DNA of 64,000 bases from Halobacteriovoraceae bacterium (GCA_002713145.1 PAVS01000017.1:3824-67823); one strand, 5' to 3'; positions 24,736 through 35,798 are shown, counted from the first letter of the stretch. The notes: generated by a model not told the origin, from the letters alone. Translations and numbers: made by a program.

Positions 24736-25857
24736 ATGAAAAAAAACTTAAATAGACGAAAACTCATTCAGTTAGCCGTGAGTGGCTTCCTGGCACAATC
24801 CTGTAAAATACCTGGATTAGGAAGGGATATTTTTAGCTTCTTCGATAAGGGGAAAGAAAAAACATCATCTAAAACTAATGAGTATATTTATTCTGGCTAT
24901 CGCGTAGGTGAACCTTATAAAACAGAAGAAGTTGGGTTGCATATTGGGGGAGTTAATCATTCCTTAAATAAAAAAGTAAAACTAAAAAATGAAATTCACT
25001 CTATTGTTTATTCCCCCCAAGATGATTCTAAACTCTTTATTTCTAAATTAGACAAGTATTCCTACTGTCAACGAGGAGAGGGTGAATTTATAGAGTTCTC
25101 TGCTGTTAAAGATCATTATTTTTACGGTCATGCAGCCTTCGATAATCTTAGAAATGTCATTTATACGACCCAGGCTAAGATCACTAAAAATAGACATGAT
25201 GAAGAACAAGAAAAGAGCCTTGGAAAAATTTTTATTTATTCAGTCGATACCTTAGAAGTCATAGGTGAATTTGAAACCTTTGGCTCCGATCCTCATGATT
25301 TAAAAATTGTTAATGATGAGCTCGTTGTTTGTAATGGCGGAGTCGACTCCAATGTGGCATTTATTAATTTAGAAACAAAGAAATTAGTTAAAAGCTTTCC
25401 CATCAATGAAGAAAATATAAGTTTACGACACTGCGAGATTATAGATAGTGAGAACTTTATCATTGCAAGTCTTTCTAGAAATATCGTTTCTCCTTGTGGA
25501 ATTTATTTATTAAATAAAGATAAAGGCTTTATCCAGTATCGAATGCCAAAAAAGTTGGAAGAAGCCCTCGCTTTAAGACAATTTCTGAGTGTCCTTTACT
25601 ATAACGGTGTTGTTTTTGCGACATGTCCAGCGGCCAATAATGTACTGGCATGGAAACTCACAGGAGAATTCATTGGCGCTCACAGTATAACCTCAGCTAA
25701 TAACCTATCTTACTCCCCTACCTATAAGGGAGTTATTGTGGGAACGGGGCTTTTAGGATCACATGCCCATCTCCTCAAGGTTATTGATCAAAATGTCGTT
25801 GTCTCTAAACTCAATCATTTAAAAGACCTAACGGGATCACATGCAACAATCATCTAA
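24736..25857 (+). CDS. DUF1513-like periplasmic beta-propeller protein with a Tat-type signal
   Basis: Signal RRKLIQLAVSGFLAQSC. The motifs HYFYGHAAF, GSDPHDLKI, LVVCNGGV and ISLRHCE parallel the conserved F-YGHG-F, GxGPHE, VVANGG and LSIRHL blocks of DUF1513. Confidence 0.6.
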   Translation: MKKNLNRRKLIQLAVSGFLAQSCKIPGLGRDIFSFFDKGKEKTSSKTNEYIYSGYRVGEPYKTEEVGLHIGGVNHSLNKKVKLKNEIHSIVYSPQDDSKLFISKLDKYSYCQRGEGEFIEFSAVKDHYFYGHAAFDNLRNVIYTTQAKITKNRHDEEQEKSLGKIFIYSVDTLEVIGEFETFGSDPHDLKIVNDELVVCNGGVDSNVAFINLETKKLVKSFPINEENISLRHCEIIDSENFIIASLSRNIVSPCGIYLLNKDKGFIQYRMPKKLEEALALRQFLSVLYYNGVVFATCPAANNVLAWKLTGEFIGAHSITSANNLSYSPTYKGVIVGTGLLGSHAHLLKVIDQNVVVSKLNHLKDLTGSHATII

Positions 25858-26779
25858 ATTAAATCAATTCGGTTTTAGTATGGTTGAGTCAACTATGGCC
25901 TTAGGCTTTATTGCGATTGTGGTTATGATTTCTCTGTCTATAAATCGTATGAGTAATCAATCTCATATGAAGATGAAAAACTCTGATGAGTTAATTTCAC
26001 TCAATAAAGAAATTAAAAATTTACTCTCAGATACGTCAACTTGTTATTCTAGTCTTTACTCTGCAGGGCAAGATGTAACTGCGGGCTATGATGTCGATGA
26101 AATCCTTGATTCAAGTGGCAATGTTCGTTTTGCTGTTGGAAATACCTATAACTTTCTTGAACTTGAAAGCATGAAGATCGAACCTCCTTCCCTTGGTACA
26201 GCAACTCATATGAATAAGCCAGGAACCGGTTTTCTCACATTAACATCTTCGTGGAAACCTACTAATAAAACGAGTTTTGACCGTTCAGTTCTGAGTCGAC
26301 TGAGAATATGGATGCAGGTTGATAATACTGGAGAGATGCTCAATTGTGGCTCTATAACAATGAATTTGAGTCATTTATGGAGAAGATCATACGTTGATGC
26401 ACGGGACATCATCTATATGGATGGTTCGGTATCAGTGGGAACGGAAAGTACAGACGCAAGCTTCGTCGTGCAAGGAAAAATAAAAGCTACACTCCCAGAC
26501 TTTGGGGATAGTGTCGAGTTAGACCCCGGCGATGTGAATGGATATTACCTCAACTTTCTTAGTGATAAGAAAATGGTCTTTTTTAATCAAGCGACACTCA
26601 GCCTAGCTGAACTTCAAGTAAGAGACCTCGACCTTACAGGTGAGCTCATCAATTATGGTACTCCTCCGGCTTGCAGTCTTGCCACACTTGGAGCCATACG
26701 GGTGAATCCTAGCATAAAACGTCTCCAGTATTGTGGTCGCCATGGGGGAACAGGAAGGTGGTTTACAATTGAAGAATAA
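25841..26779 (+). CDS. Type IV pilin-like protein, paralogue 1 of a tandem trio
   Basis: Leader MQQSSKLNQFG|FSMVESTMALGFIAIVVMISL with G-1 and E+5. It overlaps the DUF1513-like gene by 17 nt. It shares internal and C-terminal motifs with the next two ORFs (see findings). Confidence 0.75.
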   Translation: MQQSSKLNQFGFSMVESTMALGFIAIVVMISLSINRMSNQSHMKMKNSDELISLNKEIKNLLSDTSTCYSSLYSAGQDVTAGYDVDEILDSSGNVRFAVGNTYNFLELESMKIEPPSLGTATHMNKPGTGFLTLTSSWKPTNKTSFDRSVLSRLRIWMQVDNTGEMLNCGSITMNLSHLWRRSYVDARDIIYMDGSVSVGTESTDASFVVQGKIKATLPDFGDSVELDPGDVNGYYLNFLSDKKMVFFNQATLSLAELQVRDLDLTGELINYGTPPACSLATLGAIRVNPSIKRLQYCGRHGGTGRWFTIEE

Positions 26780-27692
26780 AATACTTCACCATTATGGAAT
26801 AAGTTTAGTTCAACTGACAATAGGCATTGCCTTGACAGGAATCATAAGCTCAGTGTTAATGCGCTCTCTGCTCGTTAGCCAAAAAGCAAAAAAAGACTTT
26901 TTGGTCAACCAAGAAGTCAGAGAACTCACCAATAAAATTGCTGTCTGGCTAAGTAATAATAAAGCTTGTGAAAATACGTTTGCGACAATGGATCCTAATG
27001 GAGAAACAGGACTTAAAGTGATCAAGGATCAAGATGGAAATGAAATGTGGAACTCAGATAATGATAAATACGGAACCCTCGGACTTCAAATTGAAGAAAT
27101 GAGTCTTATAGACTTTGCAGGGATGGAAGATGGATCCAATTATGTTCCAGGAGAGATGGGTTCCACAAACTTAATGATCTCTTTTTCAAAAGTAGCTGGT
27201 AGTAATTATGAAGGCAGAGAAGTTCAGTCTAAGATCAGATTATCTATTCTCACTGACAGTGGTTCAGGAGAAATTATTGACTGTTTTACCTCTGAGTCTT
27301 CAGTTGGTTCATTATGGATCAGAAGAGAAGGCACACCTACCGATATTTTATATTTAAATGGGCGCCTAGGTGTTGGAACTGATCCCACCGAAGGACTAGA
27401 TGTAGTAGGAGCTGTTCAAGTTGAAAATATCGCAGGACAAGAGATGAAGCTTGATGTCAACACCACAGAATACGAAATTGAAGTCAATGTTGATAAGCCT
27501 ATCGTTTTACGAAATATTTCTCAGGGGAGACGTGCAGATTTTGATGCTGGGTTCATAAATTACTCAAGGTATTTAAAACTTGGAAATTCTGGAATGAGTT
27601 GCACTAATCCTATTACAGGGACATTACGTTATAATGGCTTTGCCTTACAATACTGCCGAGATGGAGCTTGGAGGACACTCAGTTATGAATAA
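26769..27692 (+). CDS. Type IV pilin-like protein, paralogue 2 (Gln at +5)
   Basis: The TTG at 26769 is preceded by AGGAAGGTGG at 7 nt and gives the leader (M)KNKILHHYG|ISLVQLTIGIALTGIISSVLM. The ORF also opens at GTG 26733 and ATG 26742. It overlaps paralogue 1 by 11 nt. Confidence 0.65.
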   Translation: MKNKILHHYGISLVQLTIGIALTGIISSVLMRSLLVSQKAKKDFLVNQEVRELTNKIAVWLSNNKACENTFATMDPNGETGLKVIKDQDGNEMWNSDNDKYGTLGLQIEEMSLIDFAGMEDGSNYVPGEMGSTNLMISFSKVAGSNYEGREVQSKIRLSILTDSGSGEIIDCFTSESSVGSLWIRREGTPTDILYLNGRLGVGTDPTEGLDVVGAVQVENIAGQEMKLDVNTTEYEIEVNVDKPIVLRNISQGRRADFDAGFINYSRYLKLGNSGMSCTNPITGTLRYNGFALQYCRDGAWRTLSYE

Positions 27693-28989
27693 AGATTTTA
27701 AGCAAAAAGGTATAGGATTTATTCAAGTACTGGTTGGACTTGCAGCAGTAGGTGTCATCGGAACTTATTTAACTCAAACTATCTCCAATGATTATAAATA
27801 TTTTAAAAGTGAAGAGTATAAAAGTGAGATTGATGAATATTTAGGCCAAATGAGTATACTCTTGAGTAATCGAGAGGCGTGCATTAATAGTTTGGCAGGT
27901 AAGTCCGCACTTAATTCATCTGATTTTACTGAACTCAAAGATAATACCAACGCAACTGTTATCAATGACGATTCTCTTTTTGGCGTCACTGGAGTTCAGA
28001 TAGATTCTTTTAAACTTGAAGATCTGCCTGGTATGGATGACGGGGTAAACACAGTGCTTGGAGGATTTGGAACAACTCATTTGGTAGTTAATTTCGCCGT
28101 ACGCCATGGTACTTTTTTTGTTAAATCAAATGTCACGAGAAAATTAAAAATAAATACCAGAGCAAGTGCTACGGGAGAAGTTGATTCAACTTGCTATGCG
28201 GCTCTCTACTCCCCCGCTGGAGCTCAAAACAATCAAGGCACTATTTGGCAAAGACAAGCAGCTGATTCAAATAGTATCCACTATTCAGAAGGAAAGGTTG
28301 GGGCACAAAATCCAACGCCAACGATAGAATTCGATTTATTTGGAAAGCTGCAGATACAGCAAGATGGGCAAAACGAAACTCCTGTCATTATTCCTCCCTA
28401 CGATAAAATGCTCATTGATAGTGTCGCTTCTAATTATCTCTTGAATTTGAGTGCAAATAAGCCGCTTATTTTTAATATAGAATCGGGAGGGCAAGCAACA
28501 CTGGCCGCTCGTATTGCCTCGACAACAGGGGCGATGATTTTAGGAAGTGGTGGAACTTGCAACGCCTCAAGTGAAGGTGCCATCCGCTATGGTACAGCTT
28601 CAAGGAGGGTTGAAGTATGCCGTGGAGGAGTCTGGCGCAGAAAAAAAGTGATCCGTTACTGCTTGGCCTATGACCCAGATAGAAATCCTGATGATACAGC
28701 AGTGAATGAATCTCGTTATAATAATGATGAAGGTGCGACTTTGAGTAACACCATCTATGGTGTTGAGGGAGAGGAGTGTGGACGTCATCAAGTCATTGAT
28801 CCTGACAGTCCCGGAGGAAATTTTAAAGGTACAGATAATAATCTCCACATTGTTCATGGTGATCCTGATGTTCCTAAAAATTTAGGTTCAAGAGATTCCG
28901 ACCAAGTCTTGCGTTTTGATGACTCTGATCACTGGACACCTTGTTATAACACGAGAAACTGTCGCGACTGGATTCCCGCACATCAATAA
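27685..28989 (+). CDS. Type IV pilin-like protein, paralogue 3 (Gln at +5) with an extra C-terminal extension
   Basis: The ATG at 27685 sits in an ATGAATAA overlap with the paralogue 2 stop. The leader is MNKDFKQKG|IGFIQVLVGLAAVGVIG. It shares paralogue motifs and carries a ~110-aa Asp/Asn-rich, Cys-containing tail. Confidence 0.7.
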   Translation: MNKDFKQKGIGFIQVLVGLAAVGVIGTYLTQTISNDYKYFKSEEYKSEIDEYLGQMSILLSNREACINSLAGKSALNSSDFTELKDNTNATVINDDSLFGVTGVQIDSFKLEDLPGMDDGVNTVLGGFGTTHLVVNFAVRHGTFFVKSNVTRKLKINTRASATGEVDSTCYAALYSPAGAQNNQGTIWQRQAADSNSIHYSEGKVGAQNPTPTIEFDLFGKLQIQQDGQNETPVIIPPYDKMLIDSVASNYLLNLSANKPLIFNIESGGQATLAARIASTTGAMILGSGGTCNASSEGAIRYGTASRRVEVCRGGVWRRKKVIRYCLAYDPDRNPDDTAVNESRYNNDEGATLSNTIYGVEGEECGRHQVIDPDSPGGNFKGTDNNLHIVHGDPDVPKNLGSRDSDQVLRFDDSDHWTPCYNTRNCRDWIPAHQ

Positions 28990-29945
28990 TGTTGGGCGAG
29001 TTCATCTAGTTGATCAGAGTTTGATCCTACTAGAAAATACGCCTGAAATTTATTATTTTCTGGAGACAGTGAGAAAACTTGCGAGCTATTTTCAGTTTTT
29101 AATTTTTTGGTCGATAATAAAAAATGAACATACTGCTCATTGGGGAAATATTTTTCTTTAAATCTGTAGGTAAAATAGCCCATACTTTTTCGCATATTAA
29201 TTTCACTTATAGGTTGGAGTTTTACCTGTTCATCCTCTAGATAGTAAAATGAATCGAGAGAGCAAACTCCAGGATAAAACCTAATCAATTGAAAAACTTC
29301 TTTAAGCATTTTTTGATAAAGCTCATGTTGAGATTTGACTGGGTTTTCAGGGGTGATCCGAGTGCCTTTATATTGAAAGCGCCTATCGACAAAGTTTTCA
29401 TAACAGCAAAGAACCTGATTATTTTCTATAAGCGTAGAGAAGTCACTCACTCTGTTTAGCTTCTTTTCTTTAATTAATAAGTGGTTTTTGAGTGCTGATT
29501 CACATTTCGTTTTATCTTGTGGATATTGGTAATGGCCGAGACCTGAAAAAGAGTAAGGAAATTTGTAGATATACCCCTCTTCTAGCTCTCGGGGATGATC
29601 AATCAGTTGCACCTCGTGTTGTATCAGTCCAAGATCTTTAAACTTCAATAAGATGGTCTTAGATTGGAGCTCTTTGACTCTGACATCAACATTATAATTT
29701 TGCCCCCAAGCTTGTACATTTTTTTTATCTTGAGTGGTTTTAAAGGATTTGCCTGTTATTTTCTCAAAGCGATAAGAGAACTCATCATCGTAATTCTTGA
29801 GAGTATATATTTGGTCATCAGGATGCAAATAGTTGATCAGGTATTCAAACTCTTGATTGAGAGCAAGGGACTGAAAAGGTTCAAATGGACTTTCAAATAA
29901 ACTCTTTTCAAAATCAGCATTAAAAAACCAGGTTTTCACTTCCAC
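28983..29945 (-). CDS. ATP-grasp-like hypothetical enzyme
   Basis: YKFPYSFSGLGH, KEKKLNRVSDFS and LQPISEINMRKSMG resemble the K..SG.G, E...R.DFS and E(I/V)N.R..MG layout of ATP-grasp ligases. It overlaps the upstream DUF455 gene by 10 nt. Confidence 0.45.
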   Translation of the reverse strand: MEVKTWFFNADFEKSLFESPFEPFQSLALNQEFEYLINYLHPDDQIYTLKNYDDEFSYRFEKITGKSFKTTQDKKNVQAWGQNYNVDVRVKELQSKTILLKFKDLGLIQHEVQLIDHPRELEEGYIYKFPYSFSGLGHYQYPQDKTKCESALKNHLLIKEKKLNRVSDFSTLIENNQVLCCYENFVDRRFQYKGTRITPENPVKSQHELYQKMLKEVFQLIRFYPGVCSLDSFYYLEDEQVKLQPISEINMRKSMGYFTYRFKEKYFPNEQYVHFLLSTKKLKTENSSQVFSLSPENNKFQAYFLVGSNSDQLDELAQHY

Positions 29946-30748
29946 TCTTTTCTTTGAGTTACAGTAAAGTCATCCTGATAGGATTGGATCCATGAGATGA
30001 ATTCCTGATCAAGTTTAGCCCGCTCTCGAAGACTTGCTTGAAAAAACTGGCCTTTTGATCTGGCCGGGGTGAGGTTTCCCGGTAGATTAGATTGATAATA
30101 TTCAATAAGGGACTTATCCCCTTTTAATCTATTTAAATAGAGAGCTCCGAAACTGACGTGAGAGATCTCCTCTTTTAATACAGTCCCTAGGATTTCACTG
30201 GTTTTAAAATCATCTACTTTTTTAAATTCTTGTTGATAGTGAAAAGCAAAGTCTAGGTTTGCCGCTTCGAATGTTAGTGCCATAACACTGAGATACTGTG
30301 CTGGTGTTTTCAACAGCTTCATCTGCCGCCAAAAATAATCATTGAGGACAAAATCACCAAACTCGAAGCCCAATTCATTCAGCCTTTGCACATAGAGCTT
30401 TAAATGTTTTTGCTCATCTTTCAAGGTGCTCAAGATTCCTTTTTTAAATTGTTTGAGTTCAGGTGTATGATGGGGGTAAATCAACAACGCACAGGCCATC
30501 ATTTCAACTGCCAATAATTCATGATTAGCAAAACTATTGAGCGCCATGGCTTTTTTTTCATCCAAATTAAAATGACCTTTTGGAAATTTCGCATTTTTAG
30601 AGCTCATGGCAATCTGAGCGGATCTTCCTGGACGAGTGGGAACTTCAAGACAATCGAAATCATCAAATTCAATAGAACTAAAGTCTATGGTTTTATCTTC
30701 TAAATTTTTACCAAGTAAAATATTTTGTGCGAGCTGTGAGAGTTTCAT
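29936..30748 (-). CDS. DUF455 ferritin-like (MiaE-related di-iron fold) protein
   Basis: FANHELLAVEMMACALL, LKDEQKHLKLYVQRLNELGFEFGD, LTFEAANLDFAFHY and LKEEISHVSFG match the conserved DUF455 helices, including the E..H pairs. Confidence 0.7.
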   Translation of the reverse strand: MKLSQLAQNILLGKNLEDKTIDFSSIEFDDFDCLEVPTRPGRSAQIAMSSKNAKFPKGHFNLDEKKAMALNSFANHELLAVEMMACALLIYPHHTPELKQFKKGILSTLKDEQKHLKLYVQRLNELGFEFGDFVLNDYFWRQMKLLKTPAQYLSVMALTFEAANLDFAFHYQQEFKKVDDFKTSEILGTVLKEEISHVSFGALYLNRLKGDKSLIEYYQSNLPGNLTPARSKGQFFQASLRERAKLDQEFISWIQSYQDDFTVTQRKEWK

Positions 30749-30756
30749 ACAAAAGG

Positions 30757-33441
30757 CTAGCCTCTTTTAAAGGCATCTGCTTTGGACTTATTTTTTTTGC
30801 CCTTACTTTTTTTCTTCCCTTTAAAATTTCGGTCTTTATTGAACTTCCCTGAACCTTTGTTAGGTCCTTTGCCGGAACTTCTCCCCCCCCCACTCGACTT
30901 TCTTTTATCACCACGACCTTCTTTATTCTTTGTGTTACGGGGTCTCCCACGATGGGAGCGTCTTTCAGCAAAACATGTCTCACAAATATTATATTGATGA
31001 TCATCAGGAAGCTTGCATCCACATGAAGAGCATTTTTTTGAGATTTTCTCTGAAAGCAATTGATTGAGTTTTTCAATGGCCATCGATTTATTTTCATTCA
31101 GTTTTTCTATATCAAAACTAAAATAATTATTATCAAAATGTCTGGCGAGCCACTGATAGAGTTCAACGCATTTAATTGCAGTCTCAAGATAATCAATATC
31201 TTCATTCTCAGTATCGATCTCTTCATTCACAATCATGTTTTTACCTACATAATGATTGAGAATCCACACATAATATTGAACATGCTCCATTAATCCTTGA
31301 TTAACAGGAGCACAGGCAAAGCCAAAAATCTCGGCATCGCTCAAACTATTCATGGTGTCCGCATCTTCTACCATTTCTGCTAACTCAATCATTTCTTTGA
31401 GTTCAACACAATAAAATGGTTTTTCAAACGACATGGTGTTAAAAAGTCTTAAGAATTCAGAGAGCGATAAAGTCTGTAGATTGTTTTCTTCCAGGGCCAA
31501 GTTCACTGAGCGGAAAATTTCAAGGTCCGGACCCACCATGGCCAGTTCTTTTTGATCCAGGTCATGATGAAGTGCTGCTGAGATAGTTTCAAGCCCCTCT
31601 TCGACTTTGGCTAATGTTGTTACATACCCTTCAGGAAATCTTTTATAACGCCCGGCTCTTCCTGCTATTTGTTTTAACTCTGAGTAAGTGAGAGGGTATT
31701 CTTTTCCATCAAAAAATTTTGATATAGCAGAAAAAACTATTCGTTTAATTGGTAAATTCATCCCCATGGCGATCGCATCAGTGGCCACCATGATATCAGT
31801 TTCACCTTCATCAAATTTTCGAGCCTGCTCGCGTCGAACTTCCGGTGACAGTCGTCCATAGACAATGGAAACTTTAAATCCTAAATTTTCGAGATCTCTT
31901 TTATATTTAAGTGCATTACGCCGAGAAAATACGATAAGCGTATCATTTTTATCCATATCAACCAGACGAATTTTTTTATCCATCACACTGAGCTTTGTTT
32001 TACGCTCATAATTATGAACTTCTAACTCATCCCCTGTGAGTTTTAAAATTTGCTCAACAAGTTCATAAACAGAATGATCTCCACAGAGATGGATTTCATC
32101 CGCATTCATATTCACCAGAGCTCTGGTCCATGCCCAGCCTCTTTGAGGATCGGTTATCATCTGTATTTCATCAATAACGACACACTCGAATTCATCATGG
32201 AGCTTGGCCATCTCAATAGTGCTGGAAAAATGAGTGGCCCCTTCCACTTCCACCACTTCTTCTCCTGTAAGTAGAGTGGTTTGGCAGCCTTTATCATTCA
32301 AAGTATCAAAAAGCTCACTGGCCAGCAGCCTTAAGGGAGCCAGATAGCATCCGTTTTTTGCTTGAGAGAGAGCTTCGATAGCATTATAGGTTTTACCCGA
32401 GTTAGTGGGCCCCATATGGTAGATCACTTTTCTTTTTTTCTTGCGAGCATCAGAGTGAATCCAGAATTGACCTAGATAGTCTTTAAGAATCGTAGCTGAA
32501 ATATCTTTTCGCTTAAAGGCAAGGATACTTTTTACTAATTTAAGAAACTCTCTTTTGAGAACATGGGGTGCTTTCCAAAGCCCCACTCCCAATTGGGAAA
32601 AGAAACGATCATATTCATTATCCGTAATTAGATCGGGATGATGTCCTTCTTCGTCCAAAAGTCCGTTAAAAAAAGCGATTAATCGCTGTCTATAAATAAG
32701 GGATAAATCAGAAGTGTGACCAAAGCTTAGTTTAAAATAGTCTTTAATCTGTGAGTCTAGCTTATTAAGGCTTCCTCTTTTGAGTTTATATCTCACTCGT
32801 CCTAAATTTCTTTCAATATTTCTTTTCAGCTTGGAAACACTATCACTGACATAGGCAATATCACGCTCTAAAATAGCTTCTTCTAGGTTCTCAGCAGCCT
32901 TATCAATGAGTTCTTTTTGTTGATTAAAAACAATATCTCTTAGCCTGGCCCGGTAATCAGCGATACATTTTTGACACTGACAACCTAGTTGAGACTGTTT
33001 CAGCTCAAGGGTAAAGCTCTCTGAGAAAATCTGCTCTTGTGAGTTTTTGTGGGCATTAAAGATGCCGGTACACCAATCCTTATAAGAAGCAAGATAGTTG
33101 TCTAATAATAAGGGGTCTATTTGCTGCCCAAAAGGTATAGGAAATTCATTAGCTTCAGGAATAAGATACTCTTCTACAAAACATGTACTAATCAAGTTAT
33201 CTCGACTGGTGATCGACTTAAAAGTACCAAATTCTTTTTCTATCAGAGTTTCGAGAGAAGGTGCGTTTTTAATAAATTCCTGAGTGTAGTTACAGAAATC
33301 TTTTAAAAATTTAAGGATGTATTTTGCTTCTAAAAGAGATCGAAGATTATCAGCTTCATCATCAAGTGTTTTCTTTTGAAAAACACTTCTTGATATTTCT
33401 AAATTCTCTTCGACCTCTTTGAATAAACTATCTAATTTCAA
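30757..33441 (-). CDS. Suv3-like superfamily-2 RNA helicase with an N-terminal extension, C-terminal zinc ribbon and basic tail
   Basis: Walker A GPTNSGKTY, DEIQ box VIDEIQMI, TDAIAMGMNL and QIAGRAGR are as in SUV3/SUPV3L1-type helicases. The C-terminus has CSSCGC..x..CETC followed by an Arg/Lys/Gly-rich tail. Confidence 0.8.
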   Translation of the reverse strand: MKLDSLFKEVEENLEISRSVFQKKTLDDEADNLRSLLEAKYILKFLKDFCNYTQEFIKNAPSLETLIEKEFGTFKSITSRDNLISTCFVEEYLIPEANEFPIPFGQQIDPLLLDNYLASYKDWCTGIFNAHKNSQEQIFSESFTLELKQSQLGCQCQKCIADYRARLRDIVFNQQKELIDKAAENLEEAILERDIAYVSDSVSKLKRNIERNLGRVRYKLKRGSLNKLDSQIKDYFKLSFGHTSDLSLIYRQRLIAFFNGLLDEEGHHPDLITDNEYDRFFSQLGVGLWKAPHVLKREFLKLVKSILAFKRKDISATILKDYLGQFWIHSDARKKKRKVIYHMGPTNSGKTYNAIEALSQAKNGCYLAPLRLLASELFDTLNDKGCQTTLLTGEEVVEVEGATHFSSTIEMAKLHDEFECVVIDEIQMITDPQRGWAWTRALVNMNADEIHLCGDHSVYELVEQILKLTGDELEVHNYERKTKLSVMDKKIRLVDMDKNDTLIVFSRRNALKYKRDLENLGFKVSIVYGRLSPEVRREQARKFDEGETDIMVATDAIAMGMNLPIKRIVFSAISKFFDGKEYPLTYSELKQIAGRAGRYKRFPEGYVTTLAKVEEGLETISAALHHDLDQKELAMVGPDLEIFRSVNLALEENNLQTLSLSEFLRLFNTMSFEKPFYCVELKEMIELAEMVEDADTMNSLSDAEIFGFACAPVNQGLMEHVQYYVWILNHYVGKNMIVNEEIDTENEDIDYLETAIKCVELYQWLARHFDNNYFSFDIEKLNENKSMAIEKLNQLLSEKISKKCSSCGCKLPDDHQYNICETCFAERRSHRGRPRNTKNKEGRGDKRKSSGGGRSSGKGPNKGSGKFNKDRNFKGKKKSKGKKNKSKADAFKRG

Positions 33442-33448
33442 TTAAGTT

Positions 33449-34642
33449 TTATTTCCCCATTTCCACAGCGAATGCAATTCCTAGCCTTGCAAATTTTTCT
33501 GCATGGTCCGCTGTTCCGCCTGACCCAGCTACGTCAATTGTATCGTTTTTGGTATGGATATGACCATTAATATCTTGCATAGTAGATTCAAATGGCATTG
33601 AAGCTGGATACCCTGCATTATGCCAAGAGGCATGGTCTGAACAACCATATCCACACTTAGAGTAACCCCAAGATACACCATCTACGTAAGTATCAATCAA
33701 GCTTCCCATAAATTTCGTTTGAGCTTGATTAGTGAAATCTGTCATAAAAACGATATCGAGGTTTTTTGACCCTTTATGATTAGTCATATCGAGCTGAACG
33801 ACACCGACAACATTTTTTCCTTCACTCTTATATTTATTAGCAATTTCTTTTGAACCTAAAAGTCCTACTTCTTCTGCTGCATAGGCCATAAACTGAATAG
33901 TTCTTTTAGGCTTATAATTTGCATCCGCTAGAACTCTCATGATTTCAGTTATAGTAGAAATTCCAGAAGCGTTATCATCAGCACCCGGTGCTCTGGCACG
34001 ACTACGTCCAAAAAAACCAGCGATTGAATCGGCGTGACCACCGATAACAATAACCTCTTCAGGATGATCGGTTCCCTCAAGAGTTGCAATAACAGAAGGC
34101 TGTGGCCAAGCTGAATGCTTAAAGTATTCAACTTTTGCATCAGTTCTTGAAGCCATTATTTTTTCCCAAGTGGCTTTTACAAAAGCCTGAGAATCAACAC
34201 CCGTCTGGGCTTTATAATATCTGTTATGAAACTGAGATAATTTTAAAATCATATCTCTGATTCCAAATTCACTTACCTGTGAAACCATATTGCGAACAGT
34301 TTCACCTTTCGTAATTGTGTAGTTAAAAAAGTTTGTGCTTTTAGCCGACTTTCTGGTTTGGTGATCAGCTAAAACTCTCAAAGCCTCTTCCTTCGATTCA
34401 TGAACAATGAATCCACCACATCGGTTGAATTTATCATGCATATGCTTTGATAAATAAGGGATTTCTTTTTCATTTACTTTGAGTACTGAAATATCACTAT
34501 TCATCTTGATAGTTGATAGAGATTTCATAGATTTTTGTGAGCTTGAGACTGCGTCTGATCCAATAGTGATATAGATTTCCTTAGCCACTACGGATAAACT
34601 CGCCAAACTCATTAGTAGCGCCATGACGACTATACTTCTCAT
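33449..34642 (-). CDS. Secreted M28-family aminopeptidase (Vibrio/Aeromonas leucyl-aminopeptidase type)
   Basis: The start was chosen at the internal MRSIVVMALLMSLASLSVVAKE signal; the ORF opens at 34753. Metal ligand blocks are VIGGHADS, PGADDNASG and AAEEVGLLGS, with a C-terminal HT.ND. Confidence 0.85.
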   Translation of the reverse strand: MRSIVVMALLMSLASLSVVAKEIYITIGSDAVSSSQKSMKSLSTIKMNSDISVLKVNEKEIPYLSKHMHDKFNRCGGFIVHESKEEALRVLADHQTRKSAKSTNFFNYTITKGETVRNMVSQVSEFGIRDMILKLSQFHNRYYKAQTGVDSQAFVKATWEKIMASRTDAKVEYFKHSAWPQPSVIATLEGTDHPEEVIVIGGHADSIAGFFGRSRARAPGADDNASGISTITEIMRVLADANYKPKRTIQFMAYAAEEVGLLGSKEIANKYKSEGKNVVGVVQLDMTNHKGSKNLDIVFMTDFTNQAQTKFMGSLIDTYVDGVSWGYSKCGYGCSDHASWHNAGYPASMPFESTMQDINGHIHTKNDTIDVAGSGGTADHAEKFARLGIAFAVEMGK

Positions 34643-34753
34643 AACAAGTCCTTTGGTTAGATTTTCATTGCTAAGTAAACCATAGGGATATAAGAGTGAA
34701 AACAAATAATAACTAACATGTTGAATTCCCAATTGAACGTCCGATAAGTCCAT

Positions 34754-35272
34754 ATGAAAAAGAACATACTCGACTTAATTGATACACTTCTAGACAAAAG
34801 TGAGAATAGCCTCAGCTTAAGGGCACTTGAACAAGTTTTAAACTTTGGCATTCCATTCAACACGCCACATAAATTTAAATTCAACGAGATGTCCGAGCAA
34901 AAAACTCGGCTGGAGCTCCCCTTTATTAGGAAAAATAAAAATCATCTCGGTGGCATTCATGCTTGTGCCATAGCCACCCTTGGTGAGTATACCGCTGGAT
35001 TAAGTCTTATAAAATTTATGGGGATCAGTCGCTACCGCTTAATCATGAGTCATCTTGAGGTTGATTACTATAAGCAAGCAAGGGGTAAGGTTTGGGGGGA
35101 AATTCAAATTGAAAGTTCTCTTTTTCAAAATTCACATGCAGAGTTAAATGAAAAAGATAGGGTGGAGATTGAATTGGCCACTCATATACTCAACGAGGAA
35201 AATGAAATCATAGCCTTAGTTAAAACGAAGTGGCAGTTAAAAAATTGGCAAAAAGTCACTTTTAAAGGCTAG
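34754..35272 (+). CDS. Hotdog-fold thioesterase (PaaI/DUF4442-like)
   Basis: NFGIPFN followed by NHLGGIHACAIATLGEYTAG matches the PaaI/YiiD-C-terminal hotdog pattern. 172 aa. Confidence 0.6.
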   Translation: MKKNILDLIDTLLDKSENSLSLRALEQVLNFGIPFNTPHKFKFNEMSEQKTRLELPFIRKNKNHLGGIHACAIATLGEYTAGLSLIKFMGISRYRLIMSHLEVDYYKQARGKVWGEIQIESSLFQNSHAELNEKDRVEIELATHILNEENEIIALVKTKWQLKNWQKVTFKG

Positions 35273-35706
35273 CGATACACACACTCAAAAAGGGCTTGTT
35301 CTACTAGAGGAAGATCTTCCCTGACATCACCTGAAATTTTTATTCTCTCAAGGGGTCGCATAGAGATAACAGGAAGATCAGCGATACTCAATTTATGTTT
35401 GATATACTCTTTAGCCGTTCTCTCATTGCCATCAGTAAAGGGATGAATTTCGATAAACCCCAACCAAAAAATGGCCAATGATTTTATGAGCATTTCTCCA
35501 GCTTCAGAGCGTTGGCATAAAGTAAAAACCGTCTCCATCAGGGTGTCTAATTTTTCTTCTATTTGATCTGGTCCAATATAGAGGACTTGCTTTCCACTTT
35601 TAGTTAAGCAATACATATTTTGTGTGCGAAATAAATTTTGCTCATTATCTATTTTGAGCACAGCTTGATTGAGGAGCTTCAAGCGATTGATTTCTTCTGT
35701 TCTCAT
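35269..35706 (-). CDS. Fic/DOC-family protein with a non-canonical active-site motif
   Basis: HPFTDGNERTAK aligns to the Fic motif HPFx(D/E)GNGRxxR, with Gly to Glu and the last Arg to Lys. The ATG at 35706 is preceded by AGGA at 6 nt; the ORF opens at TTG 35760. Confidence 0.55.
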   Translation of the reverse strand: MRTEEINRLKLLNQAVLKIDNEQNLFRTQNMYCLTKSGKQVLYIGPDQIEEKLDTLMETVFTLCQRSEAGEMLIKSLAIFWLGFIEIHPFTDGNERTAKEYIKHKLSIADLPVISMRPLERIKISGDVREDLPLVEQALFECVYR

Positions 35707-35798
35707 AAAATGTCCTAGATTGTTGCTAACAGTTATAAAGCCTGATGTTTTTAATAACAACCTAAGACATATTATTTGAAAAATTTACTTAATCAATC

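Follow-up and report, generated by a model that had tools for sequence, protein, structure and literature searches.

The DUF455 ferritin-like protein and ATP-grasp ligase genes described here are lost or moved together as a unit, whereas the Suv3-type helicase gene that precedes them is a family-specific, separable neighbour and not an obligate component of the pair. In the predatory Bacteriovoracaceae/Halobacteriovoraceae (family f1, to which the analysed DNA belongs), the pair lies directly downstream of this helicase. We see about an even chance that the pair is an oxidise-and-ligate unit with a separable helicase and a target leaning toward RNA or translation. DUF455 is widespread, and its obligate coupling to the ligase in several lineages, together with its RNA and translation neighbours, offers a testable starting point for determining its function.

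Gene organization and the DUF455–ATP-grasp pair

The genes occupy the minus strand of a 64,000-nucleotide stretch of Halobacteriovoraceae DNA, referred to as the window, in which the following features were assigned:

33449..34753, minus strand: M28-family aminopeptidase, LapA-like (434 aa; Pfam Peptidase_M28, E 1.6e-38)
30757..33441, minus strand: Suv3-type helicase (894 aa, TTG start)
32458..33441, minus strand: helicase N-terminal domain, approximately residues 1-328, all-helical (AF2 model, pLDDT 90.4)
32965..33051, minus strand: invariant His131 and Cys154-x-Cys156-x2-Cys159 of the N-terminal domain (invariant alignment columns)
31042..32457, minus strand: Suv3-type SF2 helicase core, comprising DEXQ-box RecA1, RecA2 and a helical C-terminal region
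30973..31032, minus strand: C-terminal CxxC...CxxC, putative zinc ribbon, residues 804-823 (sequence reading)
30757..30972, minus strand: Arg/Lys/Gly/Ser-rich basic tail of the helicase, with stop codon (sequence reading)
29936..30748, minus strand: DUF455 ferritin-like protein (270 aa; PF04305, E 7.6e-43; putative di-iron site)
28983..29945, minus strand: third ORF, ATP-grasp ligase (320 aa, GTG start; overlaps the DUF455 stop codon)

The four genes are packed as a sequence-only reading of the window had described them, with the M28 peptidase as a co-directional upstream neighbour ending 7 nt from the helicase start, an 8-nt gap between helicase and DUF455, and a 10-nt overlap between DUF455 and the third ORF. 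The peptidase scored 238.5 bits against the NCBIfam LapA model, under the 600-bit cut-off. No intrinsic-terminator-like site was found between the four genes, and a promoter and terminator scan gave signal no higher than shuffles. The genes share one strand, short or negative spacers and the lack of an internal terminator, as expected of an operon, and judging by this layout the M28, helicase, DUF455 and ligase genes are probably co-transcribed in this genome. The DUF455 and ATP-grasp genes are translationally coupled in the window. The Atlas record begins the third protein at residue 3, which would reduce the overlap to 4 nt; the 'ME' start of the protein is common to homologues.

The association of DUF455 with the ligase was then followed in a phylum sample of 201 Bdellovibrionota genomes and in metagenome loci. 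A genome contig search placed DUF455 directly upstream of the ATP-grasp gene, abutting or overlapping it, in all 37 Bacteriovoracia-type loci, and in loci with both ORFs called the spacing was -14 to 0 nt (the exceptions being L036, at -47 nt, and the fragmented L038). A single open frame of 647-917 aa covers both domains in 13 genomes from families f5, f14 and f16 of the 201-genome sample, and a single ORF matched both profiles in 28 of 80 metagenome loci. DUF455 is N-terminal and the ligase C-terminal in these fusions, and at the junction the DUF455 C-terminus passes directly into the conserved F-F-N-x-x-x-E motif at the ligase N-terminus. Structural neighbours in the Atlas included Verrucomicrobiota clusters of 592 and 661 aa, in which every member (100%) carries DUF455. 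The window pair matches the fusion proteins in its two domains and their order, but the domains are encoded by separate, overlapping genes, and a Suv3-type helicase gene precedes them, an organization seen in one family only. In genome G162 both genes of the pair are missing, whereas the helicase and the Aldolase_II gene downstream are retained. DUF455 itself occurs in 105 of the 201 genomes, and it stands alone in family f8, where 18 of 20 genomes have DUF455 and none of the 20 has the ligase. No DUF455 lay beside the distant homologues of the ligase in Chlamydiae and Bacteroidales (0/17 loci).

Predicted activities of the two enzymes

The second ORF scored 147.3 bits against DUF455 (PF04305; cut-off 34.3). 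Its assignment to the ferritin-like di-iron proteins, suggested earlier, is supported by retention of the full ligand pattern (E77/E82, E112-x2-H115, E161, E194-x2-H197), and these residues are invariant in all 14 aligned sequences, fused and stand-alone forms included. DUF455 shares the four-helix-bundle family and the E...ExxH...E...ExxH pattern with the tRNA hydroxylase MiaE, AurF, aldehyde-deformylating oxygenase and BioE, but PF04305 was the sole match at E<=0.01, with neither MiaE nor any other ferritin-clan model reaching this threshold. Aldehyde decarbonylase 4kvs gave a weak sequence match (E 0.085). Taken together, the residue pattern indicates that the DUF455 protein is probably a di-iron, O2-using enzyme. 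The literature searched yielded no described function for any DUF455 member. In PMC12915131, BioE is described as a ferritin-like oxygenase whose reaction is the cleavage of long acyl chains. As leads only, feature look-alikes of DUF455 in the Atlas comprised AurF-like and phenol-hydroxylase-like clusters (scores 0.77-0.80).

Neither Pfam nor NCBIfam had a family matching the third protein at E<=0.01, and a sequence profile of 13 homologues found no match among PDB chains. Structure prediction nonetheless returned the ATP-grasp fold that had been proposed from its motif layout (AF2 pLDDT 91.7, pTM 0.90), and a Foldseek search with this model gave at least 500 PDB matches at E<=0.001, of which all those listed were ATP-grasp enzymes (E 1.2e-11 to 8ynd and 4.2e-11 to 7r8q). 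On its predicted structure, the protein is an ATP-grasp ligase of an unnamed family. It has the same three-domain fold as the Streptomyces 'ATP-grasp peptide ligase' 8ynd and S. aureus SAOUHSC_02373 (7r8p/7r8q), which we take to be the Asp-Met ligase LdmS, with probability 1.00 and a TM by query of 0.62-0.68, yet at only 13-15% identity. The conserved Lys, Gly-rich loop and E-x-N-x-R metal/phosphate motif are shared with ATP-grasp amino-acid/peptide ligases, whereas the N-terminal F-F-N-x-D-x-E motif and the coupling or fusion to DUF455 set the ligase here apart from 8ynd and 7r8p/7r8q. Across 80 sequences there is no variation at G135, D231, E248, N250 or R252, and conservation at K128, S134 and E160 is at least 90%; the conserved Lys, Gly-rich loop and Glu/Asn residues are presumably ATP and Mg2+ ligands. 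Both DUF455 and the ligase look catalytically intact from these residues.

Neighbouring genes and the possible target of the pair

Under the oxidise-and-ligate reading, the ligase would form an acyl-phosphate to activate a carboxylate for coupling to an amine, and the DUF455 di-iron enzyme would act on the same substrate; because the two are coupled here and fused elsewhere, they most likely work in consecutive steps. For the target we lean toward a nucleoside in RNA or a protein associated with translation, and away from a free metabolite, because DUF455, with or without the ligase, is found beside different RNA and translation genes in different lineages. Outside family f1, YebC/TACO1 flanks DUF455 in 18 of 29 genome loci (divergent in f8, f12 and f27, convergent in f14) and an S4 plus PseudoU_synth_2 gene, encoding an rRNA pseudouridine synthase, flanks it in 7 of 29, with both neighbours on the opposite strand and both counts inflated by kinship. 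PMC11990639 and PMC12234827 describe YebC as a factor in the translation of proline-rich stretches. In locus L202, a DEAD-box/DbpA helicase gene lies 16 nt upstream of the fused gene on the same strand, with an ABC-F gene convergent downstream; L198, whose fusion is 67% identical to that of L202, has the same ABC-F gene and a different, divergent SF2 helicase. YebC was found in one, a helicase in two and ABC-F in two of the 28 fused metagenome loci, the remainder having nitroreductase, HAD, enolase-type, transporter and other genes, so that most neighbours are unrelated to RNA. Beyond a few families, the evidence from neighbouring genes is thin. As DUF455 stands beside various RNA and translation genes across lineages, an RNA- or translation-linked role is plausible, if unproven. 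The RNA-modification role put forward in the sequence-only reading stays a suggestion, one that gains some independent support from the YebC, pseudouridine synthase, DEAD-box and ABC-F neighbours.

These neighbours could instead reflect inherited synteny or chance, with the pair being a small-molecule system (for example, for an oxidised amino-acid conjugate or short peptide) that has no link to RNA. The closest ligase structures among the matches listed are amino-acid/peptide ligases (8ynd, 7r8p/7r8q) and PurK-type, most genes around the fusions have metabolic or unrelated roles, L092 has a second, GSH-S/RimK-like ATP-grasp gene upstream, and the non-RNA flanks M28 and Aldolase_II are equally conserved in the family. 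Even so, we consider a small-molecule system somewhat unlikely, as the YebC adjacency recurs in two orientations and four families, two helicase families adjoin the pair in unrelated lineages (beyond chance by our judgement), and no gene for transport, regulation or biosynthesis repeatedly accompanies the pair.

Returning to an RNA or translation target, a more specific proposal is that the pair carries out an undescribed two-step modification of the translation apparatus, in which an amino-acid-type group would be added and oxidised on an rRNA or tRNA nucleoside, a translation factor or a ribosomal protein, with the Suv3-type helicase of Bacteriovoracaceae as RNA-handling partner. This would explain the location of the pair beside YebC, Uup-like ABC-F, rRNA pseudouridine synthase and two unrelated RNA helicases, but in such detail the proposal is improbable.

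The Suv3-type helicase

The three-gene linkage noted in the window is conserved beyond this genome but is confined to one family. Helicase, DUF455 and ligase occur in order on one contig and strand in 33 of 35 f1 genomes, and in 31 of these 33 the end of the DEXQ domain lies 1079-1514 nt from the DUF455 start, indicating direct adjacency. The helicase was also upstream of DUF455 in 32 metagenome loci, three with an insert. In a separate set of 32 loci, an opposite-strand ORF without a Pfam family stands between helicase and DUF455 in 12 (ten ORFs of 431-548 aa and two of about 190-205 aa), and co-transcription is therefore not required. A Suv3 helicase (E<=1e-10) was present in all 35 f1 genomes and in one of the 165 other genomes in the phylum sample, where it is unlinked. 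On this distribution, the helicase and the pair seem to have become adjacent once in evolution. An M28 homologue lies upstream of the helicase in 24 loci of that 32-locus set, and downstream of the ligase an Aldolase_II gene is found repeatedly (Pfam-confirmed in L007 and L039), as it is after the helicase region in L095 (also Pfam-confirmed); because these unrelated flanks are conserved too, conserved adjacency is weak evidence of shared function. At the Aldolase_II position in metagenome loci, an opposite-strand ORF of 205-228 aa recurs.

The helicase had also been proposed as a member of the module, and this was not supported in that form, as only DUF455 and the ligase are fused or coupled across lineages. 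That all three form one RNA machine, with the helicase presenting or remodelling RNA that the pair modifies, is improbable: the genes are tight and co-directional in most family genomes and uninterrupted in 20/32 loci, the linkage persists where the M28 neighbour is gone, in L029, L033, L035, L037 and L045, and a second, unrelated RNA helicase (DEAD-box, DbpA domain) adjoins the fused gene in L202, but the Suv3 helicase is limited, apart from the single unlinked copy, to one family of the phylum sample, the pair and the fusions occur without it in 13 genomes from three families, an opposite-strand gene breaks the linkage as described above, G162 has the helicase without the pair, in G201 no helicase lies within 9 kb upstream of the pair and an unlinked one is present elsewhere in the genome, and we know of no ATP-grasp enzyme that acts on RNA.

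Membership of the helicase in the Suv3 family was confirmed by phmmer (human SUPV3L1, E 9.3e-75; yeast Suv3, E 5.1e-72), and GPTNSGKTY, VIDEIQM and QIAGRAGR are all present in its translation. DEXQc_Suv3 (PF22527) matched residues 329-478 at E 8.5e-63 (211 bits, cut-off 27) and Helicase_C (PF00271) matched at E 2.6e-15 (57.1 bits); SUV3_C (PF12513) reached 21.7 bits, under its 27-bit cut-off, and the yeast Suv3 alignment spans residues 330-786, thereby reaching into the helical region at the C-terminus. As a bacterial Suv3 relative with a 328-aa extra domain, present in every sampled f1 genome, the protein bears on bacterial RNA decay and on Suv3 ancestry.

The same DEXQ-box SF2 core, with GPTNSGKT, DEIQ and QIAGRAGR, is found in Suv3/SUPV3L1 (PDB 3rc3, 7w1r, 9vc8; yeast 6f4a), but the bacterial helicase differs at both ends. 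The N-terminal extension of about 330 aa is real, being aligned in 27/27 homologues, and the human Suv3 alignment begins at residue 326. This all-helical domain is specific to this helicase lineage: a Foldseek search of the PDB with its model gave no significant match (best E 0.49), VIA-align matched only a helical hairpin (best Z 9.9), and neither returned a Suv3 chain. Its invariant H/C-x-C-x2-C residues, His131, Cys154, Cys156 and Cys159, form a possible zinc site. At the opposite end, the helicase adds a putative zinc ribbon and a long basic tail. The CxxC...CxxC motif is CSSC...CETC, at residues 804-823, and occurs in most homologues, being missing from the same L029, L033, L035, L037 and L045 clade. 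The Arg/Lys/Gly-rich tail follows this motif as had been reported, and basic tails of variable sequence are present in all 35 helicase homologues compared.

DUF455 and the ATP-grasp ligase as one unit

The DUF455 protein and the ligase form one unit, coupled or fused, in which both enzymes keep their catalytic residues. In the window, their genes lie at the end of a minus-strand cluster:

33449..34753, minus strand, M28 peptidase (Pfam Peptidase_M28, 1.6e-38)
30757..33441, minus strand, helicase, 894 aa (DEXQc_Suv3, 8.5e-63, residues 329-478, plus Helicase_C)
29936..30748, minus strand, DUF455 protein, 270 aa (Pfam DUF455, 7.6e-43)
28983..29945, minus strand, third protein (the ligase), 320 aa, without a Pfam or NCBIfam family

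The tight packing described in the sequence-only reading is borne out by the ORF coordinates, with spacers of 7 nt (M28/helicase) and 8 nt (helicase/DUF455) and a 10-nt overlap between DUF455 and the third ORF. A promoter and terminator scan found no intergenic terminator-like sites in the cluster, its counts being not above those of shuffled sequences. Three consecutive overlapping ORFs without a Pfam family (25841-28989, plus strand; 312, 319 and 451 aa) converge on the ligase gene, and we take their hydrophobic N-terminal segments to resemble type IV pilin-like leaders.

That the third protein has an ATP-grasp layout had been proposed from its motifs. Its AlphaFold model, built with 13 close homologues as input (pLDDT 91.7, pTM 0.90), matched ATP-grasp enzymes in every Foldseek hit listed, so the concern that 28983..29945 might lack this fold falls away at the level of a predicted structure. 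The top match was 8ynd, a Streptomyces "ATP-grasp peptide ligase" (E 1.2e-11, TM by query 0.67), followed by SAOUHSC_02373 (7r8q, E 4.2e-11, TM 0.68) and then by PurK, PurT, PylC and biotin carboxylase. An exhaustive HMMER search gave 251 representative clusters of homologues at E ≤ 0.001. When 80 of these were aligned, G135, D231, E248, N250 and R252 were invariant and K128, S134 and E160 were conserved in at least 90%, which fits the ATP and Mg2+ binding pattern of ATP-grasp enzymes. The di-iron ligand pattern E77/E82, E112xxH115, E161, E194xxH197 was likewise invariant in all 14 aligned DUF455 sequences, drawn from separate, fused and stand-alone forms, in keeping with the earlier placement of DUF455 as a putative ferritin-like di-iron protein.

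DUF455 lies directly upstream of the ligase in 37/37 Bacteriovoracia-type loci of the genome-contig scan, with a spacing of -14 to 0 nt where both ORFs were called; the exceptions are locus L036 (-47) and the fragmented L038. In the latter, from one MAG, DUF455 and the ligase are present only as fragments (L038:9175-10920; ORFs of 137 and 103 aa), which may reflect gene decay or errors in the assembly. Across a 201-genome sample of the phylum (Bdellovibrionota), DUF455 was found in 105 genomes and the ligase profile in 54. The two share one open frame of 647-917 aa in 13 genomes (G025, G046, G049, G056, G080, G091, G100, G117, G155, G159, G171, G177 and G187) from three families other than the window's own (f1; Bacteriovoracaceae/Halobacteriovoraceae by record titles). 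At the fusion junction, the DUF455 C-terminus leads straight into the conserved F-F-N-x-x-x-E motif of the ligase N-terminus. A single ORF also matched both profiles in 28 of 80 metagenome loci found with the DUF455 profile, near-duplicates such as L182/L183, L170/L171 and L189/L190 included, and Verrucomicrobiota clusters of 592 aa and 661 aa in the Atlas carry DUF455 in all members. The 80-sequence ligase profile had no matches among proteins of 679-2000 aa, a size range that leaves out fusions shorter than 679 aa.

Second full-length ligase copies occur away from the cluster at G042:C8:53651-54634 (E 8e-56) and G178:C15:44758-45810 (E 1.3e-51); a second strong DUF455 match was not found in either genome. 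Distant homologues from Chlamydiae and Bacteroidales were treated as a different branch of the ligase family, and none had DUF455 beside it in the 17 of 20 selected loci checked by Pfam (L065, L067 and L082 not included). In all four Chlamydiae-labelled loci L040, L041, L047 and L049, the gene immediately after the distant ATP-grasp gene is of the EPSP_synthase family (MurA/AroA-like), with a D-Ala-D-Ala ligase (Ddl) gene nearby in two and no DUF455. In the Bacteroidales-labelled termite-gut and gut loci L043, L048, L051, L056, L060, L062 and L078, also without DUF455, it follows an ABC-transporter ATPase or GNAT gene, the ABC gene being one gene further upstream in L051 and L078.

The Suv3-type helicase and its linkage to the pair

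Judged by its sequence, the helicase is a genuine Suv3-family member. All of the motifs first quoted for it were found in the translation, and phmmer against PDB chains matched human SUPV3L1 (E 9.3e-75) and yeast Suv3 (E 5.1e-72, spanning helicase residues 330-786). The N-terminal extension noticed at the outset is a separate domain of about 328 residues that aligned in 27/27 homologues, with His131, Cys154, Cys156 and Cys159 invariant and a predicted structure that is all-helical (pLDDT 90.4). It had been called an extension without a nameable family and stays so: Foldseek against the PDB gave no significant match (best E 0.49), and a wide VIA-align search reached a best Z of 9.9 on helical hairpins only, the noise level for helical models. 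The C-terminal CxxC...CxxC motif reads CSSC...CETC at residues 804-823; this putative zinc ribbon is present in most homologues and missing in one clade (L029, L033, L035, L037 and L045), and the Arg/Lys/Gly tail is matched by basic tails in all homologues. The helicase C-terminal end was considered as a substrate of the ligase, and the idea was dropped because the "...AFKRG" ending and the presence of the pair are uncorrelated: eight loci keep the pair without this ending (L019, L029, L033, L035, L037, L045, L046 and L055), and the L096 helicase has a related ending, yet the pair was not found there.

The Suv3 domain (E ≤ 1e-10) was found in G000, the window's own assembly, and in 35/35 f1 genomes of the phylum sample. 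Cultured members of this family (Halobacteriovorax, Bacteriovorax) are predators of bacteria and not human pathogens. The three-gene linkage is conserved beyond this genome, with helicase, DUF455 and ligase in this order on the same contig and strand in 33 of the 35, 31 of them with direct helicase-DUF455 adjacency by spacing; the helicase also lies upstream of DUF455 in 32 metagenome loci. Outside f1, the domain occurs in only 1/165 genomes (G017), as an unlinked 533-aa form, and it is absent from all 13 fusion-bearing genomes. No gene separates helicase and DUF455 in 20/32 genome-contig loci, and in the other 12 an opposite-strand ORF without a Pfam family lies between them, including in the window's closest relatives and in G042, of the same genus. 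The two parts are also separable. In G162 (98% complete, 3 contigs), the helicase and, downstream, the Aldolase_II gene are retained and both pair genes are missing; no pair was found in G174, whose helicase lies at the end of a contig; and G201 has the pair without a helicase in the 9 kb upstream, the helicase being elsewhere in the genome. Synteny around the cluster is generally stable, as the unrelated M28 gene is conserved in 24/32 loci and the Aldolase_II gene likewise. Given this distribution and separability, the helicase-pair adjacency looks like a single ancient event that was retained, not repeated recruitment.

The inserted ORF, of 430-560 aa, belongs to one subclade (L007:7510-9156, minus strand, with counterparts in L008, L010, L012-L014, L017, L019, L028 and L038, and also in L126, L128 and L133). 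L095 carries a longer, 703-aa ORF at this position, and the pair is missing there.

A further copy of the cluster lies on contig C1 of the window's own assembly. The contig that holds the window, C20 (85,177 bp), is collinear with and inverted relative to G000:C1:186376-255191 (69 kb; 66-81% nucleotide identity) over almost all of its length, and matches no other contig. Either two related organisms are mixed in the assembly, or this is a very large old duplication. Given the collinearity and a contamination estimate of 8.28%, the C1 "second copy" may belong to another, related organism and not be a paralogous duplication, and it served here only as an additional relative. In the window, a DUF4442/thioesterase-like gene (34754-35272, plus strand) and a small Fic-domain gene (35269-35760, minus strand) lie between M28 and FeoB; in the C1 copy, the DUF4442 gene and FeoB are present and the Fic gene is absent.

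Other neighbours of DUF455 and the possible target of the pair

Outside f1, 29 genome loci were surveyed for neighbours of DUF455. YebC/TACO1 flanks it in 18 and an S4 plus PseudoU_synth_2 gene in 7, counts made without lineage correction. By family, YebC flanks DUF455 in 10/10 fetched f8 loci (by coordinates, in at least 17 of 18 DUF455-bearing f8 genomes), 3/5 checked f12 loci and 1/1 f27 locus, always divergently, and in 4/6 f14 loci, where YebC and the fused gene converge; the adjacency in G079 was also taken from coordinates. YebC was next to DUF455 in 0/7 loci of f5, f16 and f25, and in f1 it is located elsewhere in the genome. In Bdellovibrio-like genomes, the DUF455 that neighbours yebC is a stand-alone form. 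YebC is reported to be a translation factor that acts on proline-rich stretches (PMC11990639, PMC12234827), and TACO1 is reported to have the same role in mitochondria (PMC11381339). Among the 28 fused metagenome loci, YebC is beside the fused gene in one (L197). In L202, the fused gene is preceded, at a distance of 16 nt, by a DEAD-box/DbpA helicase gene in the same orientation and followed by an ABC-F gene; in L198, with a fusion 67% identical to that of L202, the same ABC-F gene occurs with a different, divergent SF2 helicase, and in L169 GreA is divergent beside the fused gene.

This RNA/translation neighbourhood is a real but modest hint, since kin share neighbourhoods, most neighbours are on the opposite strand and the counts take no account of lineage. 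Our tentative preference, held at a little under even, is for a target of the pair that belongs to RNA or translation, whether or not the helicase is involved. From what is known of the two families, the ligase would form an acyl-phosphate and then an amide, and the DUF455 di-iron centre would use O2 for hydroxylation or another oxidation of the ligase's substrate, or of its product. The remaining neighbours of the fused metagenome genes are unrelated to RNA (nitroreductase, HAD, enolase-type, thioesterase, transporters). We consider it less likely that the pair acts on a free metabolite. The strict proposal of the sequence-only reading, in which helicase, DUF455 and ligase together make up an RNA processing or modification module, is improbable: the conserved order in f1 speaks for the helicase as a part, whereas its restriction to that family, the interrupted loci and its separability in G162 and G201 speak against it.

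An EpmA/EpmC-like role for the pair in EF-P modification was also dropped. G000 has one EF-P and a 318-aa frame that matches EpmA/GenX at 272 bits, slightly short of the cut-off of 286.9, and EF-P lysylation thus seems already provided for.

Literature searches found no function described for DUF455 or for its pairing with a ligase, many "DUF455" text matches being DUF4553 or DUF4559, and on ferritin-like/ATP-grasp/diiron fusions nothing relevant except BioE. BioE and DUF455 are likened by description only; the BioE paper mentions neither Pfam nor a DUF. The components of the pair and the helicase belong to known superfamilies; what is new is the split DUF455/ligase form that follows a Suv3-type helicase across a single bacterial family, the helicase N-terminal domain without an assigned family, and the recurring YebC and helicase neighbourhood of DUF455.

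In g40, a genus of f14, the gene for the DUF455-ligase fusion comes after a VWA_CoxE gene (L091:5361-9101, L109:4136-7924, L111:5826-8991 and L087:7404-11265), which in L091 is preceded by an AAA_5 (MoxR-like) gene. We take this layout to recall chaperone pairs that insert metal cofactors.
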